A model generated the notes under the pieces. That model worked only from the letters and a program-made list of their open reading frames with translations, ran no database searches and had not been told where the DNA came from. A stretch of 63,574 bases of DNA, counting the filler. It is 12 parts of 12 records of this genome, joined end to end, with 100 filler letters (N's around TTAATTAATTAA, not from the genome) between each part and the next. Parts side by side here need not be neighbours in the genome. Positions count along the whole stretch, not along the records: positions 48,643 to 52,531 come from SRR7504441_7875; 11 more parts are not named here. The stretch is one strand, 5' to 3'. Of this stretch, positions 5,267 to 60,035 are shown one piece after another (position 1 is the stretch's first letter; every line of letters begins with the position of its first letter). The position numbers were made by a program, and so were the translations under genes.

Positions 5267-5366
5267 NNNNNNNNNNNNNNNNNNNNNNNNNNNNNNNNNN
5301 NNNNNNNNNNTTAATTAATTAANNNNNNNNNNNNNNNNNNNNNNNNNNNNNNNNNNNNNNNNNNNN
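5267..5366. other. Artificial contig linker (N44-TTAATTAATTAA-N44); identical linkers at 12857-12956, 19263-19362, 24268-24367, 32272-32371, 35429-35528, 44756-44855, 48543-48642, 52532-52631, 56069-56168, 59936-60035
   Basis: Identical 100-nt spacer with a six-frame stop cassette; flanking genes are truncated at it. Confidence 0.99.
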
Positions 5367-12856: not shown

Positions 12857-12956
12857 NNNNNNNNNNNNNNNNNNNNNNNNNNNNNNNNNNNNNNNNNNNN
12901 TTAATTAATTAANNNNNNNNNNNNNNNNNNNNNNNNNNNNNNNNNNNNNNNNNNNN

Positions 12957-13408: not shown

Positions 13409-13709
13409 CAATATATACAAATATTGTGAGTGCCTATAAATAAATCAGGTACGGTATCGGCAATGGTCGTACAGGGGGTGCCGGGCCTGACATCCTGGTC
13501 AACCTGCCCGACAGCACGTGACAGCATCAAGGACGTCAAGGGCTACGGCAACACCGGAGATGGCGACGTCGCGACGATGAACATGTTACTAGTGCAGGTT
13601 GACACAAGTTGTGTGTCCGGTGCACCGCCGATGGGTGCCGGGTGCGCGGCTGGCCTGGCCCGGAGTGGTGCCGAGTCGTTATTTGAGTAACGGACATACC
13701 ACAGCTCAA

Positions 13710-16603
13710 ATGGCAGCGGCCGGGTCGTCGGAGATGGGCGAGCTGCAGCTGGGCCAGCGGGTGAGCGTGTACAAGAAGTGCCCGGGCACGGTGCGGTTCA
13801 TGGGCGAGATCGATGGGGAGTACGGGCTCTGGGTGGGAGTGGAGCTGGACAAGCCGCAGGGCAAGAACGACGGCAGCGTCAAGGGCCAGCAGATCTTCAG
13901 CTGCCAGCCGATGCACGGTGCCCGGCGGCCCGGCCCCTGCCAGTCCCGGCCAGGCGTGTTCACTCGGGCGCACCGGGTGTCGGCTTACGATCCGGCCGAC
14001 CAGGCGGCCACCACCATCCAAGCCGCGTACAAGTCCGGCCGGGACAACAGGCGGGCCGGCCAGAAGCAGCTGTTCAGCGCCAAGGAGGCGATCGAGGCCT
14101 CGGATGAGTCTCAGTATCTCAAGCAGAACAAGGAGCTGGCCGCGATCGACTCGCTGCTCACCCAGAACTACCGAACAGCCCGCCGGCCGCCCAGGGCCCA
14201 GACTGCGGACGGGTGGCACCGGCGGGTGGCCGCGATGCAGGTGGAGCCGCACTACCCTGGGCTCCACCTGCCGACCGAGATGACCGGCGAGGCGTGCGAG
14301 CAGCTCCGCGAGTACTTCCAGACAGGTCCGCCGGTGCCGCTGCACCAGAAGTACGCGCTGCAGCTGCTGTACGGGCTGCGTGACCTGGTGCGGAGCCAGG
14401 TGCCGAGCGCGGTGCACAGGCTGGAGGCGGTCCCGAGTGAGGGCGAGCCGAGCGAGCTCTGGGTGGCCGGGGACACGCACGGGCAGCTGAACGATGTGCT
14501 CTGGATATTCCACGAGCACGGCCCGCCCAGCGCCAGCCGCTGCTACTTGTTCAACGGGGACATCACCGACCGCGGGCCGCAGGCAGTGGAGATCTTGCTG
14601 CTGCTCGCGGCGTACAAGCTGGTGTGGCCCGAGTCGGTTTACATCAACCGTGGGAATCACGAGGACAAGGAGATGAACAACATGTTCGGGTTCGCGGGCG
14701 AGGTCCGGGGCAAGTACTCGGGGGCCACGCTCAACCTGTGCTATTCCATATTCAACTTGCTCCCGCTTTGCACCGTGCTGGCCGGCTCAGTGATGGTTGT
14801 GCACGGCGGACTGCCCCGCAAGCGGAACATCAGCCTGGCCCAGATCGACGCGGTCGACCACCGGCGGGCGGTGCCCTCGTCGCCGGACCAGCTGCAAGAC
14901 AGCATCTTCTTTGACTTGCTGTGGGCCGACCCGTCGCCCAGCCGCGGGATCACGCACAACAGCGAGCGCGGGGGCGGGACTGTCATGTTTGGGCCGGATG
15001 TGTCCAAGGGCTTCCTCGAGCGGAACAACCTGGAGCTAGTGATCCGGAGCCACGAGGTGCCGTCCACGATGGCCGGCTGGGAGGACCACCACGATAACCG
15101 GGTGATGACCGTGTTCAGCGCCTCGAACTACTGTGGCGACTACGGCAACTGGGGCGGGCTAGTGCAACTAATTAGGTCCAAGCAGACTGGCGCCATAGAG
15201 CCTCACGTGTATGAGCACTGGGCGCCCTCGCTCGACCAGATAGAGGCCGAGCAGTCCATGTTCAAGGGGGTGCACGAGCGCTGGCAGAGGACGCTGCTCC
15301 GTGCGAGCAGTTCGCGTGTTAGCCAGGAGGACGCGGGCAAGGCCGAGCTGCTCAAGAGCCTGGCCGAGCGGATCGTGCAGGCCAAGGACCAGCTCCAGTG
15401 GTACTTTGAGCGGCTGGACGAGCAGGCTACCGGGCTGGTCTCCGAGGCCGAGTGGCGGGACGCGATGGAGGCTGTGCTCGAGCTCGACATGCCCTGGCGG
15501 CAGTACAGCAGCTTCCTGGTTCGGGTCGAGCACGGGCAGGTCGACTACCACCGGTTCCTAAGACGGTACCGGGTGGTGTTCGAGGCGATCGAGGGCGCCT
15601 GCTGGGTGGAGCAGGCCCGGGCCACGCTCCGCGCTGTGATGGGCACCGCCAACCTTTCGATCAGCGAGACGGTGGCCTTGTTCGAGAAGGACGCCACCCC
15701 GCGGCACGTGGCGCAGGCGATATCCCAGTCCGCGCACGCCGACATCGGGCTCAGCCGGGCTCAGCTCGAGAAGGTAGTGGCCAACGCCGTCAAGATGACC
15801 GACCAGCCGGCCGATCAGACCACGCTCGAGCGCGGCAGCTCGGCCGCTGCCCTCCGGGCCGAGCGTTTCTCTCGCTCGCTCGGAAGCTCAGCTGCCGACC
15901 CGGACAAGCTCGCGCTGCTCTCGAGGGCGCTGCACAGGCAACTGCCGGCCGGCTGGCGGCTCAGCGGCGGGCAGCTTCCCGGGCTCGTCGGTGGCGCTGT
16001 TCAACAGCTTCGACACCGACGCCGATGGCTACGTGCAGGCAGCCGGGCGGGCGGGCCGGGGTGAGGCTGGACAGCTCGACGAGTTTGTGTCGGCGTTCGA
16101 AGCCGTTTTCAAGTACCAGCCGGCTGACCAGATGCTCTCCAAGCGAGAGCTGGCCGAGCTGGCGCAGCAGCTGGACACGGCCGGGAAAGGCCACATCGGG
16201 TACATTGAGTTCTGCAACGCACTGTTCGCCGAGCCCGGGCACGACCAGGCAGTCGAGAGGTGCCCCGGGGAGCTGGGCGGGCTGACCGGTCGGCAGCACT
16301 GTGGACGAGCTGATGCAGCAGCTGTACCAAGCGTTCTACCACCACAAGGTCGGGCTGAGGCGGGCGTTCCGGTTCTTTGACGTTGACAGCGACGGGCTGA
16401 TCACGCCTGCTGAGCTCAAGGCCGGAATCAACACACTCAACTCGCTGATCCAAGAGGCCGGCGGCTCGCCCTTCTCGAGCGCGCAGGTGGGCACGATAGC
16501 GGCGCACCTGGACCGGGACAGCGACGGGATGATCAACTACGAAGAGTTTCTGGACGGGTTCCGAGTGTCAATCTCCGAAGACGTAATCGAGTCCGATCAA
16601 TGA
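13710..16603 (+). CDS. PPEF: PPEF/RdgC-type Ser/Thr phosphatase with N-terminal CAP-Gly, IQ motif and C-terminal EF-hands
   Basis: CAP-Gly WVGVELDKPQGKNDGSV; IQAAYK; PPP motifs GDTHG, GDITDRG, RGNHE, HGG, LLWADP, RSHE, FSASNY; EF loops DTDADGYVQLDE, DVDSDGLITPAE, DRDSDGMINYEE after removing 36-37-nt introns. Confidence 0.9.
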
Positions 16604-19262: not shown

Positions 19263-19778
19263 NNNNNNNNNNNNNNNNNNNNNNNNNNNNNNNNNNNNNN
19301 NNNNNNTTAATTAATTAANNNNNNNNNNNNNNNNNNNNNNNNNNNNNNNNNNNNNNNNNNNNGGGGCGGTGGCATTCGAGTCCGGATAAAGCACGAGTCT
19401 TGAGGGGCTTGCGTGGGATGCAGGAGGCAAGACCTGCGGCCGGGACTTATCTGAGTACTATTTGAGTACTGTACGGTATGTGTAGAATCTAACAAGCGCG
19501 GAAAAAGCTTATAGAGTTTATCATGATCCCGAGATCTATCCGGGATCTATATATAATGTGAATGCAGCACATGAGGTAAGCATGAGGGGTGACGATCACG
19601 GAATGAGGTCCGGCTTTGCCGGACTCTGACTGCGGCTCACCAGGTCGGTGCCAATGGTGCTGCACCAGCCACTGTGAGCCCCACACAACATAGTCTAGCC
19701 ACCTCTCTATCGCTGCCCGGATCGACTGTTTCTCACTGTCCGCCTCGGCCGGCTGCCGATACGACCTGGCACAGTAGG

Positions 19779-24267: not shown

Positions 24268-24367
24268 NNNNNNNNNNNNNNNNNNNNNNNNNNNNNNNNN
24301 NNNNNNNNNNNTTAATTAATTAANNNNNNNNNNNNNNNNNNNNNNNNNNNNNNNNNNNNNNNNNNNN

Positions 24368-32204: not shown

Positions 32205-32371
32205 GGCGCCGGCCCGCGATCACCGGGCCGGCGGGCAGACCCCGGCTAGCGCACGTGCCGCAGATCCAGGCNNNNNNNNNNNNNNNNNNNNNNNNNNNNN
32301 NNNNNNNNNNNNNNNTTAATTAATTAANNNNNNNNNNNNNNNNNNNNNNNNNNNNNNNNNNNNNNNNNNNN

Positions 32372-35428: not shown

Positions 35429-35583
35429 NNNNNNNNNNNNNNNNNNNNNNNNNNNNNNNNNNNNNNNNNNNNTTAATTAATTAANNNNNNNNNNNNNNNN
35501 NNNNNNNNNNNNNNNNNNNNNNNNNNNNTAGCATTTTTCGCATTAAAACGGATTATACCCTAGGTACAGGTTACGAGTACGTA

Positions 35584-44616: not shown

Positions 44617-44855
44617 CGAACAAAGCCCAAGGTGGCGGGGCGGGTGGCGAGCTGGAATTTTCTGGCGCTGCAGCTGCAGCTGACAGTGAGGTGATCCCGG
44701 GGAGGGGGAAGTCGTCTGGGGTGCAGTGTGGGCCGATTTGGGAGGTGTGGCCCGGNNNNNNNNNNNNNNNNNNNNNNNNNNNNNNNNNNNNNNNNNNNNT
44801 TAATTAATTAANNNNNNNNNNNNNNNNNNNNNNNNNNNNNNNNNNNNNNNNNNNN

Positions 44856-47800
44856 GCAAGGGCGGCAAGGGCAAGGTGGCGCCTGTGGTGGTCGAGAAAC
44901 AGAACGTGCCGAGGCGGCCGGCGCCGGGCCGACGGGCTGGCAGGTGACTCTGAGTGCCGACCACGAGGACGCGCTGCTCGACTTGCTGGACTCTATGGAC
45001 CTCGAGCAGCTCCAGCCGGGCCAGGGCGGGCTCGACAGCTGCAGCCGGCTCAAGAGACCCAACGTTCGGAAAGACCATCTGGATTTCGCGGTGCGGTGCA
45101 GCCACGGTGCGGCTGGCGAAGGCCCGGAAGGTGATGGCCGCCCGCGGGGGGCTGCGCTCGGCGGAGGAGCTGCAGCAGATCGCCAGCGCCAAGCTCGAGA
45201 ACAAGCGGTGCCGGAGGTCTGGGCCAGGTGCGCTGACGGTGAGTGCAGCTTCATCCAAATGCAGCAGCAGCGGCACCGGCTGCCGTCCTGGTCGGTGGCC
45301 GCCGAGCTGGTGGACCTCGTGGCCAACAACCAGGCAGCCCTGGGCACGGTCGCCTGGCGAGCCCGGCCAGGTTGTGGTGGTGTCGGGGGAGACCGGCTGC
45401 GGTAAGACAACACAGTGCCCGCAGTTTTTGCTGGATGAGGCCATCTCGGCCGGCTGGGGCGACTACTGCCGGATCCTGTGCACCCAGCCCCGGCGGATAT
45501 CAGCGGTCGGGGTGGCGTCCAGGGTGGCTGAGGAGAGGGTGGAGTCGCTCGGAGAGTCGGTGCCGACCTTTGCTTGTCCGCACTTGATATATCGAATGTG
45601 GTCAGGTAGGCTATCAGATTCGGCTTGAACGAAAGGTCACTCCGGAGACCCGGCTCATCTTCATGACTACCGGGATTCTGCTCCGGCGGCTGGCAGCTGA
45701 CCCGGAATTGGTTGGCGTGACACATGTGATAGTGGACGAAGTTCATGAGCGCAGCCTCGACTCGGATTTCCTGCTGATTATTGTCAGGGATTTGCTCCCG
45801 CGGCGGCCGGATCTCCGGCTGATCCTGATGTCGGCCACCATCAATGCGGAGCAGTTCTCGCGGTACTTTAACGGGGCCCCGATGATGCACATCAAGGGCC
45901 GGACTTACCCTGTGACTGAGCACTTCTTGGAGGATGTCGTGGAGATGACCAGATATAAGTGCGACAGAGGGACTCAGTATGGCAAGAAGCCTCTGGCCGG
46001 GCAGGCCAAGGCAGTGCGGAACCAATCTGGGGTGGAGGTGGTGCAGGATGTACAGGCCCGCGGAGGCAAGGGCAAGCGGCACTATTCTGAATCCACGCTG
46101 AGCACGCTCGACTCTATGGATCAGGAAAAGATCAACAACGAGCTGATCCAGACGCTGGTGGCCCAGCTGACCAATTCGGACAAGCCCGGCGCGGTCCTGG
46201 TGTTCTTGCCGGGCCTGATGGAGATCAGGACATTGTTTGATGCTATTTCACAGGACCGGCAGCGATTTCCGCCGGGCAAGACAATGGTGCGTGCCAGTGG
46301 GTCTGAATGCGTGAGCCAGTGGGTAGGTGCTGGCGTTGCACTCGTCACTCTCAACTGAGCAGCAGCAGAGAGTGTTTGCGCACCCGCCTCCAGGGGTTAG
46401 GAAAGTGATTATCTCGACAAATATTGCAGAGACGAGTATCACAATAGATGATGTCCGGTTCGTGATCGACGCGGGCAAAGTGAAAGAGAACCGGTACGAT
46501 CCTCAGAATCAGATGCCTGCACTTGTTGAGACCTGGGAGAGCCAAGCTTCCGCAAGACAGCGCCGTGGTCGGGCTGGTCGTGTGGCAGAGGGAGAAGCGT
46601 TCTATTTGTTCACCAGAGCGACGCATTCGAACATGGATGCATACCAGACCCCGGAGATCATGCGAGTGCCGCTTTCGGAGCTCTGCTTGCAGGTGCCCAT
46701 TCGGTGACAGGCCTAGCAGTATGGCCGGTCCAGGTAAAAGCACTCGAGATTGGCGAGCCTCGAGAGTTCCTCGGGAAGGCAATGCAGCCGCCAGAGCCAG
46801 CTGCTGTTCAGGCCGCGCTCGATACGCTCTCTGAGATTGCTGCTATCGATAATGATGGCGAGCTAACCCCACTTGGGCTTCACCTCTCCGCGTTGCCGGT
46901 GGACGTTCGAATAGGCAAGATGATCTTGTACGGCGCACTATTCAGGTGCCTTGACCCAGTGCTCACAATCGCAGCCACAATGAGCTTCAAGTCGCCTTTT
47001 GTCTCGCCGATCGATAAAAGAAACGAGGCCGACGAGGCCAAAGAGAAGTTCGCAGTCGGTCGATCCGACCACCTGACTGCCCTGAATGCGTACAATCAGT
47101 GGCACCATCAAAAGCGGCAGCGAGGTGGAGCGGAGTGGGACTTCTGTAGACAGAATTTTCTGTCGGGTCAAACACTCAAAATGATCAGCGAGATGAAGGG
47201 CCAGCTGACGGAGCTGCTCTGTGACATTGACTTTGTTTGGTCCGAAGGCAAGACCGGCCGCTCATTCTTCTGTGCCGAGCCATCAGGCGGCGAATGGTTT
47301 AACGAGAACTCGAACGACCTCAAGCTGGTCAAGGGTGTGCTGGTGACTAGCCCTGTGCACTGGCTGTCACGCCAGCCGGCCAGGTGGCTGGGCTGTATCC
47401 CCGAGTAGCCTCGGTGACGGCGGCACCGGATGGCAAACCACCCAAAATCAAGACGCGGCGTGACGGGGATGTGATGATCCACCCGTCTTCCGTTAACTTC
47501 GAGAGGAGCAAGTTTGAGTCGCCCTGGCTGGTGTATCACGAAAAGGTGCACCCCCTGTGCCGCTTGACTGCTGAGTAATGATAACCCAGGTGAGGACGTC
47601 GGCGATCTTCCTGCGCGATTCGTCGATGGTCAGTCCGTACTCGCTGATCTTGTTTGGCGGCCGGATCTTCCTTGAAGAGAAGAAAAACATGCTCAAAGTT
47701 GATAACTGGATCAAGTTCAAGATGGACGCGCAGGAGAGTCACGTGATCAAGGCATTCAGACTGGCGCTCGACCGGTGCATGCCCCTCCCACAGCACGGAC

Positions 47801-48233: not shown

Positions 48234-48373
48234 TTATTCCTAACGTGTTTACAACAGTTGTCGAGAATTAAAATCACACTTTGGAAGTTCTATAGTCTAT
48301 TTACTCACTTGAGTATAATTACTTGAGTATAATTATAACGGCATGCACGGCTTTCCATCGCACCCGGGACCCC

Positions 48374-48542
48374 ATGACCTCTCCGGAACTGCGGATGATT
48401 GCCGCGTGCGCTGATGGGGACCTGGCGTCGGCCCAGCAGCTGGTCGAGTCCCACCCGAGCCTGGTCACTTGTCTGGACAACAGCGGACTCCAGCCGCTGC
48501 ATCACGCCTGCCGCAATGGCCACCTGGAGGTGGCGCAGTGGC
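48374..48542 (+). CDS. Ankyrin-repeat protein, 5' fragment
   Basis: ACADGDL...GLQPLHHACRNGHLEVAQW. Confidence 0.85.
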
Positions 48543-48685
48543 NNNNNNNNNNNNNNNNNNNNNNNNNNNNNNNNNNNNNNNNNNNNTTAATTAATTAANN
48601 NNNNNNNNNNNNNNNNNNNNNNNNNNNNNNNNNNNNNNNNNNTCTAATTAATTCCGGATATATCGACACCTATTAAATCGTGGAT

Positions 48686-51600
48686 TCAAAGTTCTTCCGC
48701 AGCGATCCCGACTTCAAAGTCATAAAGCAGTTTGCTTTCCACGTCTCCTATTGGGAGCATCATTGACCACGTCACCTCAAAGCACTTATCTCCCTCCACA
48801 TCCCAAAAACTTGCAACGAGCTCAAGGAGCGGTCCGCGGACATCTTTGACGGATGCGCGCATTTCAAACTCGGCTCCCAGCGCAAGCTCTTTGCTGAAGA
48901 TGGCATTGACTGTGGAAGCAAACAAGAGCCTTTGGAAGTAATGCTCCAAATGGCAGAGTCCTGAGCGGTGCATCAGGAGGTAAATGGCACGTTCGGAGGC
49001 TGGAATGATCTCCCTGACCGTGAAATGTTTGTTGAAATCGCATTGACTCCATTGTACACGAAGACCTGGAATCGACACTTGTTCGTCTAAGTTGATCTTC
49101 TTAGGCGGGTTCCACCAGAATTCAAACACGCCCTCCTGCCAGCACAACTTCAGCTTGGTGTAAATGCCCTGCCTGAGTATGTACAGGACTGCACTCAGTG
49201 CCAAGGCGGGCTTCGTGCCCATGCTAGCCGGTGCGTTCCGTCTAGCATGCCGTGCGTCAACTATCCGCTGCAGGGACTCCTTGTTCACATGCGGAAAGGA
49301 GCCATCGGTACTTGTACTTGAAGCTTGTCCCGACATAAGTTCTCCGATTCGAGAAGCCAAAGCTGGTAGATCTGGAGTTTCAAGCAACAGTGGAGTCGGG
49401 ACTTTAACGCCTAACCGATTCTGCAGTTCAGTTGTCATCTCGATTGACTTCAAGGAGCCGAGTCCATTCTCCAACGGTGAGAGGTCTTGATCGAGTGCGC
49501 CTCCAGTTATGTCTTGCCCCACCTCGAGAACAACGGCGAGCACAGCCTCCGCCCTCTCAGCAGGAGGCAAGAGTGCCAAGCTGGCATGATCAGCACTCCT
49601 GGTGCTTGGATCAGAGCGCACCTTGGTGGATTGCAGCCTCGGGATCTTTTCTGCCACTTTAGTGAGCACCACGTTGCGCATGAAGGCAAACGGTCGGTCA
49701 CGAGCAGAGTGATCGTAGTACACCAGGTTACAGCGCACCGTGGAGGGACTTCGCTCTAGAATCTCGCCAGCAATTCGGCACCGGTAGCAGCGCTCGCTCG
49801 GCCCGTGATCATCCGGCAGGTAGAGCAGAACAACCTCGCCAACTGAAACGGGAATGAAGGTCGCCACTGGGTCAAAAGAGCAGACCACTTGCAGGGCGGA
49901 GTCAAGGACGGCCGGCAGATGGGCTGCCTCCAGAAGGCCGTGAAAGTGGAACCCAGTCCACTGGACTAGCTGGACCGTGGCGAAGCTGTCCGCATACTGC
50001 AACTGCAGGCGATGGCAATGCCTGTAGAACTGGTCAGCGCCCATTGTCTGAATGTGGTTCACGTTCTCTGCTTCGAGTCTGTCCATCTCAGCCCTCATTG
50101 GCGGTGCAGGAGGCAGCTCATCAAAGGCGCTGGTGTCCAATCGGCTGCCAGCTGGGCGGGTAGCCCGCACAAGAGTCTCTCCCTGGTACCTGATGGCGAC
50201 CTTTTGGGGGCTAGTTGCCACCTCCAGCACGAGCGGCTCGTTCATAGGGCTCAAAAAGCGCACATCTGTCAGATGTAGAGCCCCTCCATCAAAGGCAGCC
50301 CACCACTGCTCGCTCAACAGCGTCAGCCATCCTGCTGCAGGTGCTATCTGTTTGTCCATGATGGTATGGCCTGCAAAGCCGCAGGACTTCCAGATATCTG
50401 CCGTGTCGATTCTGGTGACCAGCTTGGCAGTCGAGGCCCGCCAATGGGTGCACAGCTGTATCAATTCATGCATCACTTCTGGGTTGCGCAGGGAGGAGCT
50501 GTCCGCGTCAACACCAGCCAGCAAAAGCTTCAAGGTGGTCCGGGAGACCTTGCCCGTGACAGTCATAGGCAGCGCGCTGTAGGTCAATATGATCTCGGGC
50601 ACCGCGTGCTCCCCCAAAGATGCTTTGATCGCAGCCTTGCAGAGCCCTAGCAGCTCTGAAGCGTCGGGCGTCTGGTCGGCGGAACGAGGTGCGAGCACTG
50701 CAAAGGCCACGGGGGTGTTGCCCTTGATGAAGTCTGGGCCTCCCACAACACCAAGGCCTTTGAGCAGCTCCTGGTCTGCACAGCTCCAGATCACGGCCTC
50801 GATTTCCTCTGTGCCCACCCGATTGCCGTTCACGTTGATCACTTCGTCAGAGCGGCCATGGAAGGTATAACCACCGTCGGCGTGCATTCGAGCGTTATCC
50901 CGAAGCAGGAATGTGTCTCTGGGGAGGCCCTTGGTCTCGCCCGGTAGATAGGTGGATCCATACTTGGCCAGGTCGCCCTTCCAGTCCTCACTGCCGATCC
51001 CGGCAACGTCACCAAACACTGTGCGGCCCATGTACGGATAGGGCCGCGTGATCAATATCTCACCATAGTTGCCGTCAGAGTCCTCGTCTGGCCCGATTGC
51101 CGCCTTGATCCAGGGCAGTGGGTAGCTCTTGGTGTCTGGCACTAACTGCTTTTCCAGAGGCCGAGTGAAGACAATCCCGCCGTGCTCTGTCGCCCAGTAC
51201 GAGTTCATGAAGTTCGGTGTGATGTGCTTGGCCGCAAACCCGTGAACCTCCAAATTGACCGGTTCGGCACAGAAGGTACCGAAGCGCAGCCGGCTCAACT
51301 CGTATTGCGAGAGCTGTTGGATTTGCTCTGGTGAGTTCATAATCGATCGGATCAAAGCCGACCCGGTCTTGAACAGCGAGACTTTGTGCTCTTGTAGCAG
51401 GCTTGCCCAGCGGAGGGCAGATGGGTAGATCGGGGAACCTTCGAGAAGGACTGATTGCACGCCGCTGATCAGAGGCCCGATTAGCATGTATGATTGGCCT
51501 GTGATCCATCCTGTAGTCCCGATCGTCAATATCGTGTCGGAAGAGTCTGCCTGAAACACCGTACGCATCGTGAGTGCGATCCCGTAGATATAGCCGCCAT

Positions 51601-52464
51601 GCACGTGGACGATCCCCTTCGGCTTGCCTGTAGAGCCGCTGGTGTAGCTAACAAAGAGCGGGTGCTCAGACCGTACCGGGACTGCGGGGCAGACCCGCCA
51701 GACGTGTGCAGCCAGCTCAGCATCGGTGAGCGAGTCTGGACAGTCAACGGAGCTCAGGTCCCACGCGGGCAGTGCCAAGATCCGGCTCTCGTCCACCAGA
51801 CCCTTGAGGTTGGCGGCACACTGGATCTCTTTCCCTCCTTGGAGGGTCGGATGCGCGCTACTGATCAGCAACTGCGGCTGCAAATCCTCCACTCGATATT
51901 TGAGTGCAGAAATCGGCTGCTCCGCGGTGGTGGCCGAGTAGATCACACCGCACCTGCCAGTTACTGTTAGATGCAGTTGGGTGGTGCCGCGCACCGCATC
52001 GCGGCCAGTAGCCAGACCATCTGCTGGATCCCAGTTGGCATATGAACCAACACCCTGTCGCTCGGCTGCAGCCCGAACTCATCGGTCAGCCGGGCTGCCG
52101 CGGCGGCCACGTGCACCGCCAGCTCGCGCCGGCTAATCGAGTGGGCCGGCCGGTCCTCCGCGCACTGAGTGAAGGCGACGGCCAGTCCGTTGCCCTCGAC
52201 CAGGTGCCGGTCGACCAGGTTGAAGCATCCGTTGGTCCAACCGCCCACGAACCAGCCGTAGTACGGCGCCGCCCCGTCGTCGAGCGTGGTGTGCCAGGCC
52301 GACCAGCCCCCCTCGGCGGTTGCCGGCTCAAGACTGGTCGAACAGAAGCGCCAGCCGCCCCAGCAGCCCCGGGCCGTATCGAAGGTCATCCAGCCGTCGT
52401 CTTGAGAGAACCAGTAGAGAGCCGCGGCCGCCGCTCGGTCGTGATCGAACTCGCCGTCCGTCAT
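48686..52464 (-). CDS. Acyl-AMP ligase (ACS/PCS-type) - PKS dehydratase - ACP - hot-dog thioesterase multidomain enzyme (intron 51954-51994)
   Basis: WFVGGWTNGCFNLVDRH, YTSGSTGKPKG, GWITG, CAEPV, NSYWATEHGG, GRSDEVINVNGNR, LPMTVTGK; DH GHTIMDKQIAP and PAVLDSALQ; ACP GLGSL; TE RVQWSQCDFNKH. Confidence 0.88.
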
Positions 52465-52631
52465 GGAGCTCAGACTCACCCTCGTATCTCTTCTCTTGGC
52501 GACGGACGGTTCTTCCCATGGTGCGTTTAATNNNNNNNNNNNNNNNNNNNNNNNNNNNNNNNNNNNNNNNNNNNNTTAATTAATTAANNNNNNNNNNNNN
52601 NNNNNNNNNNNNNNNNNNNNNNNNNNNNNNN

Positions 52632-56040: not shown

Positions 56041-56168
56041 GAGGCTCTCAGCCCCCCCCCCCCCCCCCNNNNNNNNNNNNNNNNNNNNNNNNNNNNNNNN
56101 NNNNNNNNNNNNTTAATTAATTAANNNNNNNNNNNNNNNNNNNNNNNNNNNNNNNNNNNNNNNNNNNN

Positions 56169-59935: not shown

Positions 59936-60035
59936 NNNNNNNNNNNNNNNNNNNNNNNNNNNNNNNNNNNNNNNNNNNNTTAATTAATTAANNNNNNNNN
60001 NNNNNNNNNNNNNNNNNNNNNNNNNNNNNNNNNNN

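Follow-up and report, generated by a model that had tools for sequence, protein, structure and literature searches.

A conserved eukaryotic protein joining a propionyl-CoA-synthase-type ligase to a dehydratase, carrier and thioesterase: candidate one-protein line for acrylate and 3-hydroxypropionate

The window analyzed here is a stretch of 63,574 nucleotides, made of 12 contigs (3.1-9.2 kb, GC 53-68%) joined by N44-TTAATTAATTAA-N44 linkers. One of these contigs (SRR7504441_7875; 48643-52531, 3,889 bp) is occupied by a single gene on the minus strand, the predicted product of which has four domains in the order ligase, polyketide synthase (PKS)-type double-hotdog dehydratase (DH), carrier, and hotdog thioesterase (TE). 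Judged by its alignments, the gene belongs to a eukaryotic family conserved in this same four-domain architecture, and its ligase groups with that of propionyl-CoA synthase (PCS). We propose that the protein may act as a one-protein line, in which a C3 acid, either 3-hydroxypropionate (3-HP) or acrylate, would be loaded on the protein's own carrier, hydrated or dehydrated there, and released; we assign this proposal a probability of about 0.5.

The gene is intact. It runs from an ATG at 52464 to its own TGA stop (48686-48688) in two predicted exons and encodes 1,245 amino acids; a spliced frame of about this length with its own stop had been claimed in a preliminary description of this stretch and was upheld by open reading frame (ORF) analysis and by alignment of homologues across the exon junction. 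Two overlapping ORFs of 170 and 1,102 codons lie on the minus strand in different frames. Excision of a 41-nt GT..AG segment containing in-frame stops (Table 1) restores the reading frame and fuses them into 1,245 codons, and the resulting junction (..AAMRCG/VIYSATT.., the slash marking the splice) aligned without gaps to the 26 homologues that span it. A DEAH/HA2-type helicase gene on the plus strand of the preceding contig has introns of 41 nt (47343-47383) and 44 nt (47536-47579), both GTG..CAG; tiny introns of this size, some 41-44 nt, seem to be characteristic of the host, a marine protist. Seven runs were checked for RNA, each with just 5-10% of the sampled words, and contigs from four of them were aligned; no intron-spanning RNA contig was found in this set, which leaves 51763-52152 uncovered. 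Pieces of the gene were present at 99-100% identity in contigs of one DNA run and of several metatranscriptomes, namely those of two polyA studies of seawater and one other, a distribution consistent with expression of the gene.

When the whole protein was scanned against Pfam (E ≤ 0.01), matches above the curated cut-offs were obtained for AMP-binding (1.1e-40), AMP-binding_C (2.8e-7), and PP-binding (6.5e-5), and matches below the cut-offs for PS-DH (1.7e-3) and 4HBT_2 (1.8e-3; 19-21 bits vs. a cut-off of 25.5); a weak match to ACAS_N was also present. The same scan yielded no ketosynthase (KS), acyltransferase (AT), ketoreductase (KR), or condensation (C) domain (PF00109, PF02801, and PF00698 were without a match), in agreement with the preliminary description, and neither a crotonase (PF00378, PF16113) nor the MDR domain of an enoyl-CoA reductase (PF00107). 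Compared with a type I PKS module, the protein thus lacks KS and AT but has the double-hotdog DH (an HxxxGxxxxP motif with D at the G position, and DxxxQ) and the carrier serine. The DH histidine (near 50367), the carrier serine (near 49455), and the aspartate of the TE motif DxNxH were all found where they had been placed beforehand.

Structural models supported the assignment of both hotdog domains. An AlphaFold2 (AF2) model of the C-terminal 601 residues, covering DH, acyl carrier protein (ACP), and TE, had a mean confidence (pLDDT) of 83 and a pTM of 0.49, and therefore its single domains are reliable while its inter-domain geometry is not. In Foldseek comparisons, this model matched the DH domains of PKSs (MlnB, AlnB, CurJ/F/K, and a MAS-like PKS) with E values of 7e-15 to 1e-11 and TM scores of 0.6-0.72, the best being MlnB, AlnB, CurJ, and the MAS-like protein (7e-15 to 1e-13). 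A separate AF2 model of the C-terminal 202 residues, the TE (pLDDT 91.7), matched YbaW/FadM (1NJK), YbgC (5T06/1S5U), and two enediyne ACP-polyene thioesterases, SgcE10 (4I4J) and CalE7 (2W3X), with E values of 1e-6 to 1e-5 and TM scores of 0.6-0.74. These best fold matches have the DxNxH aspartate in common with the query, but identity to them is 10-15%, and the TE described here is fused behind a carrier and a conserved helical segment. That segment, which is assigned to no family and is seen as helices at model residues 404-460 (pLDDT about 80-95) and in the family consensus, could be a lid or a docking element.

The family comprises about 30 protein clusters. Of 8,000 scored candidates, 773 were significant matches, and the top 30, proteins of 1,013-1,557 aa, share the four-domain layout, most with 32-37% identity over 87-99% of the query and colinear from the first domain to the last. 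Named members are Micromonas pusilla CCMP1545 XP_003059156.1 (MICPUCDRAFT_58717, annotated 'uncharacterized protein'), Aureococcus anophagefferens EGB05706.1 (partial, annotated hypothetical protein), transcript EP00038_P019988 of the choanoflagellate Savillea parva, and MMETSP transcripts; every one is annotated generically only, and the largest cluster contains 336 member sequences. The DH histidine, the Asp and Gln of DxxxQ, the carrier serine, and the TE aspartate were present in 31 of 31 alignment rows. They were likewise invariant in all rows of a 25-row set, from which 6 of the 30 homologues were left out as near-duplicates or N-terminally truncated, with identity to the query over DH-ACP-TE of just 22-32%. 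Within the DH motifs, H, P, D, and Q are invariant in the family alignments; in the TE motif, D and N are invariant (33 of 33 rows) and H occurs in at least 90%. Pfam coverage of the 25 rows (at the same threshold) was 24 for PP-binding, 21 for 4HBT_2, and 13 for PS-DH. Most homologues run 12-114 aa past the TE, and the query stops just short of such a tail. In several family clades this C-terminal tail is hydrophobic and by look resembles a membrane tail anchor.

When 1.84 billion representatives of any length were searched with the DH-carrier-TE portion, 166 matches had E ≤ 1e-3, of which 39 reached E ≤ 1e-10 and 20 reached E ≤ 1e-30. All matches covering the DH or the TE were family members or their fragments, none longer than 1,430 aa, and giant PKSs aligned to the carrier stretch only; the gene thus stands alone and is no fragment of a larger PKS, as the preliminary description had also held. 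No KS-fused form of the DH-ACP-TE unit was found among these representatives. We consider it extremely unlikely that the gene is an artefact, be it a pseudogene, the result of contig chimerism, or part of a larger PKS gene truncated where the contig ends. Such an origin would suit the shortness of the contig, the frame that remains open upstream of the ATG to the 5' edge, the 41-nt interruption bridged by no RNA contig in the runs described above, and the missing C-terminal tail. It is opposed by the length of the 1,102-codon ORF together with a frame-restoring GT..AG intron of a size seen elsewhere in the assembly, by end-to-end colinearity with 30 homologues whose N-termini start at the same position, by the gene's own TGA with AT-richer sequence 3' of it, and by matching pieces in four independent runs.

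Literature searches, with supplementary files outside their scope, found no description of the family or of its architecture, and no paper for MICPUCDRAFT_58717, AURANDRAFT_38341, XP_003059156, C1MU95, or EGB05706. According to the accessible portion of an algal PKS survey (PMC4661987), genes were sought there by their KS and C domains, an approach that would therefore miss the present family. The expectation that the architecture was undescribed is in line with these searches; the architecture is not unique, however, since it recurs in some 30 clusters, sequenced genomes included, under generic annotation.

The ligase itself was most similar to PCS. Among solved structures, the PCS of Erythrobacter (6EQO) scored 329.6 bits and the best acetyl-CoA synthetase (ACS) 187.7 bits, so that the earlier ranking of PCS over ACS was borne out. 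An N-terminal insertion of about 45 residues, rich in tryptophan, is common to PCS-type ligases and absent from Acs and PrpE; PCS also carries the motifs FCAEPV and NSYWATEHGG unchanged, and these shared features had all been noted in the preliminary description. No fatty acyl-AMP ligase (FAAL) was found among 38 PDB matches at E ≤ 1e-10, a result that covers neither the FAAL insertion nor any FAAL row in the tree below.

A ligase tree of 68 rows was obtained by a rapid search, with SH-aLRT as the sole measure of support and a long-branch warning. The rows were the query and 24 family members (6 of the 30 were left out, their N-terminal halves missing), 5 KS-fused proteins, 7 short proteins, 24 PCS sequences (every third near-complete one), a PCS from a Natribaculum plasmid, E. 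coli Acs, E. coli PrpE, Paracoccus Acs, and three other ligases. PCS, the family, and a set of eukaryotic ligase-ACP-KS proteins formed a clade with 100% support and a stem of 1.79, which excluded Acs, PrpE, and the other ligases; both E. coli and Paracoccus Acs thus fell on the far side of a fully supported branch. The family itself also received 100% support. It was placed not inside PCS but as sister to the ligase-ACP-KS clade (80% support), and the query joined a Savillea pair, P0001/P0002 (90% support). These results support a PCS-type rather than a canonical ACS ligase. The preliminary description had gone further and supposed that the crotonase and reductase of PCS were swapped for DH, ACP, and TE; given the sister position of the ligase-ACP-KS clade, this is only one possible history. 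The Natribaculum sequence is an unannotated ORF of 1,818 codons on the haloarchaeal N. longum plasmid CP095395.1 (L003:2828-8281); it groups with PCS ligases and matched the ligase better than any other plasmid sequence did (39% identity).

Residues of the acyl pocket and the CoA site, numbered after E. coli Acs, were compared across 27 family, 26 PCS, and 9 KS-clade rows; their roles we take to be those of the corresponding residues in Salmonella Acs. Pocket positions 310, 311, 386, 387, 413, 414, and 415 read I, T, C, A, Y, W, and A in every family and PCS row and in 8-9 of the 9 KS-clade rows (V310, T311, V386, G387, W413, W414, and Q415 in E. coli Acs). Since all seven agree with PCS, the substrate should resemble that of PCS, which is reportedly 3-hydroxypropionate. 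The CoA contacts were distributed otherwise: F163, G165, F166, R191, and H525 were kept in 26 of 26 PCS rows and in none of the 27 family rows. In the KS clade, G165 was kept in 9 of 9 rows, R191 and H525 in 1 of 9, and F163 and F166 in none; R584 was kept in 25 of 26 PCS, 8 of 27 family, and 1 of 9 KS-clade rows. The replacement of VFGGFS by TTAEQP, first noticed in the query, thus extends to a loss of this segment throughout the family, with retention in PCS. Loss of the contacts to the CoA nucleotide would fit loading of the carrier in cis, and both carrier-fused lineages appear to have given up most of this site.

These residues bear on the alternative that the protein is still a CoA ligase, forming acetyl-, propionyl-, or 3-hydroxypropionyl-CoA as do ACS and PCS, with the DH-carrier-TE portion separate or regulatory. 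G524, R526, and K609 are kept in every row of all three groups, UniRef labels the Micromonas member 'acetate--CoA ligase', and the top NCBIfam models are indeed those of ACS (TIGR02188 / PRK00174, 264-265 bits) and PrpE (TIGR02316 / PRK10524, 163-185 bits). These scores, however, lie far below the respective cut-offs (725 and 657; 827 and 955), the ligase is not nested in ACS, the CoA-nucleotide contacts retained by PCS are lost in all 27 family rows, and the carrier serine is invariant. We regard a CoA ligase as very improbable.

The order of events that we propose for the one-protein line is as follows. First, the PCS-clade ligase would adenylate 3-HP or acrylate and, as its residues suggest, transfer the acyl moiety not to CoA but to the phosphopantetheine arm of the carrier in the same protein. 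The DH, by its fold and its invariant His, Asp, and Gln, would then interconvert 3-hydroxypropionyl-S-carrier and acryloyl-S-carrier. Finally, the C-terminal hotdog TE, with its invariant Asp, would hydrolyze the product to the free acid. With the chemistry held on the carrier arm, the acryloyl thioester would never be a free CoA ester. The net reaction would be the ATP-driven conversion of acrylate and water to 3-HP, serving detoxification or assimilation, or the reverse, serving acrylate synthesis. Enoyl hydration is the favoured equilibrium; because of this, and because one member comes from a heterotrophic choanoflagellate, we lean slightly towards hydration of acrylate to 3-HP. Analogy with PCS, where 3-HP enters and is then dehydrated, would support the reverse direction equally. 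It is the combination of a small, PCS-like pocket with strictly conserved DH residues that points to the 3-HP/acrylate pair; acetate and glycolate are excluded because an active DH requires a β-hydroxy or enoyl substrate.

Several considerations weigh against this proposal. Its basis is kinship, fold, and conservation, and the argument from the pocket proceeds by analogy. The pocket is also identical in the ligase-ACP-KS clade, and therefore does not by itself specify a pathway. The segment with R191 and R194 is a gap in 18-20 of the 27 family rows, so that calling these residues 'lost' hinges on the alignment. Consuming ATP for the addition or removal of water on a C3 acid that is then set free looks wasteful. 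Prey contamination might account for the choanoflagellate record. The genera Micromonas and Aureococcus accumulate dimethylsulfoniopropionate (DMSP), the acrylate precursor, according to the part of PMC11306096 at hand, but most marine algae make DMSP and the link is therefore circumstantial. The modelled arrangement of the domains is unreliable, as noted above. Lastly, the query shares domain order and catalytic residues with its named eukaryotic homologues but differs from them, apart from the absent tail, at two motif positions: its DH motif reads HxxxDxxxxP where 30 of 31 rows have HxxxGxxxxP, and its A10 motif, LPMTVTGK, has M where other rows have K (P-K-T in 29 of 30, P-R-T in one).

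The same machine might instead act on another acid, such as 3-hydroxybutyrate/crotonate, β-alanine, 3-methylmercaptopropionate, or DMSP, with the DH performing the matching β-elimination or addition before hydrolysis. The chemistry of a DH, abstraction of an α-proton and loss of a β-leaving group, is generic enough to allow this. There are bacterial precedents as well: excerpts of PMC7496086 indicate that the BurA thiotemplate line of Burkholderia can load DMSP, and those of PMC8163506 that the ATP-dependent DMSP lyase DddX forms acryloyl-CoA; the named hosts, moreover, are among the DMSP accumulators mentioned above. The seven pocket positions, however, equal those of PCS in all 27 rows and retain the depth-limiting Trp, which argues for a small acid like 3-HP and against a bulky sulfonium group. 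A different substrate is therefore unlikely in our judgement. One variant can be stated separately, namely an ATP-dependent, carrier-tethered β-elimination lyase for DMSP or a related β-substituted propionate. The ligase would load DMSP, the DH would expel dimethylsulfide (DMS) to leave acryloyl-S-carrier, and the TE would free acrylate. If true, DddX would have a eukaryotic counterpart in this family, and algal DMS a new source, in Micromonas-like picoeukaryotes and pelagophytes, but we hold this variant to be quite improbable.

The kinship with KS-fused proteins raises another alternative: that the protein supplies a starter, handing acryloyl- or 3-hydroxypropionyl-carrier in trans to the KS of a separate PKS or fatty acid synthase (FAS), with the hotdog domain as an editing hydrolase. 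In the sister clade, a ligase and carrier of the same type are fused to a KS (P0035-37, P0041, P0059, and Prymnesium parvum KAL1521309.1), one such cluster has members of 2,757 and 3,126 aa, and Micromonas carries large type I PKS genes according to the accessible portion of PMC4661987. A TE directly behind the carrier is, on the other hand, the usual layout for release, its Asp is invariant, and the family has been kept as a closed four-domain unit with no KS fusion in the search of 1.84 billion representatives; the role of starter supplier is accordingly rather improbable. The sister proteins share with the query the pocket, the loss of most CoA contacts, and a fused carrier, but continue into a KS, some into multi-kilodalton PKSs, and lack the DH-TE release unit, which suggests that their ligase-carrier portion is a C3-acid loading module for haptophyte-type PKSs.

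The closest characterized relative of the ligase domain, then, is PCS, of the 3-hydroxypropionate bi-cycle in Chloroflexus and of Erythrobacter sp. NAP1 (6EQO). PCS reportedly performs its reactions while sequestering acrylyl-CoA. The query is alike in its N-terminal insertion, its seven pocket positions, and its place in the same 100%-supported clade, and would resemble PCS in that a C3 acid is activated and then dehydrated, with the acryloyl thioester shielded from the cytosol. The two differ in that PCS relatives carry a crotonase and an MDR reductase, whereas the query has neither and carries a PKS-type DH, a carrier, and a hotdog TE; it has lost the CoA-nucleotide contacts, is eukaryotic with an intron, and would yield a free acid rather than propionyl-CoA. 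Other ligase-carrier loading didomains (FAAL-ACP, FadD22-type, BurA) likewise load a carrier in cis, but appear to belong to another ligase lineage; in the query, the CoA site was lost by substitution or deletion of ACS-type contacts. The nearest clusters in the ESM Atlas, FadD22-like proteins and bacterial proteins joining AMP-binding to an ApeI-like dehydratase, scored 0.86-0.89, below the 0.9 guide, and are analogies of architecture only. For the handling of acrylate in bacteria, excerpts of PMC4029986, PMC5651017, and PMC8163506 describe PrpE/AcuI, AcuH, AcuN-AcuK, and DddX, in which a thioester of acrylate or its precursor is formed and then removed. The task is the same as that proposed here, but it is carried out by separate CoA-dependent enzymes of other families, and not by one polypeptide with a carrier.

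The coordinates of the gene and its parts are collected in Table 1. As the 12 contigs are unlinked, and may derive from more than one organism, genes on either side of a linker are not true neighbours and there is no usable gene neighbourhood. Two further ORFs were observed on the plus strand of the window. One of 821 aa (13599-16061) combines CAP-Gly, PPP5-TPR-like, and calcineurin-like phosphatase domains (PPEF-type), with its best named relatives, 31-41% identical, spread across cryptophytes, apicomplexans, oomycetes, and dinoflagellates. The other, at the end of the contig preceding the ligase gene (48323-48542), runs into the linker as a truncated gene and is ankyrin-repeat-like by eye.

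Table 1. Positions, in window coordinates, of the ligase-DH-carrier-TE gene, its predicted parts and residues, and the linkers between contigs.
Feature	Position	Strand	Content or basis
Exon 1 (157 codons)	51995..52464	-	start codon, PCS-type Trp-rich N-terminal extension, ligase start
Predicted intron, 41 nt, GT..AG, in-frame stops inside	51954..51994	-	frame restoration and gap-free junction alignment
Exon 2	51953 to stop 48686-48688	-	rest of ligase, DH, carrier, TE
Ligase domain, remainder	50504..51953	-	Pfam AMP-binding and AMP-binding_C, PCS match, tree, residue table
TTAEQP in place of FGGFS	51937-51914	-	residue table
P-loop YTSGSTGKPKG	51646-51614	-	ligase motif
A10 lysine K625	50551-50549	-	ligase motif
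PKS-type double-hotdog dehydratase	49649..50446	-	PS-DH 3.8e-4 on segment; Foldseek
DH catalytic His686	50368-50366	-	motif position
DH Asp841	49903-49901	-	DxxxQ motif
DH Gln845	49891-49889	-	DxxxQ motif
Carrier domain, ACP/PCP-like, GLGSL	49325..49588	-	PP-binding 4.4e-5 on segment, above cut-off
Carrier Ser990	49456-49454	-	predicted phosphopantetheine-attachment serine
Helical segment, about 57 residues, between carrier and TE	49112..49282	-	model and family conservation
Single-hotdog 4HBT/YbgC-type thioesterase	48689..49081	-	4HBT_2 4.1e-4 on segment, below cut-off; Foldseek
TE Asp1129 of DxNxH	49039-49037	-	motif position
Linkers	5267-5366, 12857-12956, 19263-19362, 24268-24367, 32272-32371, 35429-35528, 44756-44855, 48543-48642, 52532-52631, 56069-56168, 59936-60035		

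How marine eukaryotes handle acrylate, the reactive co-product of DMSP cleavage, and 3-HP is poorly known; the characterized acrylate routes that we found in the literature are bacterial and CoA-based. The family described here is a candidate for a single-polypeptide route of acrylate or 3-HP in globally abundant picoeukaryotes such as Micromonas and Aureococcus, and its large metagenome clusters reach 336 member sequences. If the one-protein line is real, this chemistry would take place on a carrier arm, and the toxic acryloyl thioester would be kept off CoA. In two eukaryotic lineages, moreover, a PCS-type ligase would have exchanged CoA for a carrier protein as its acceptor; a DH and a TE close the line in one of them, and the other opens into PKSs. 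This would be relevant both to the evolution of assembly-line loading and to the engineering of 3-HP and acrylate production.

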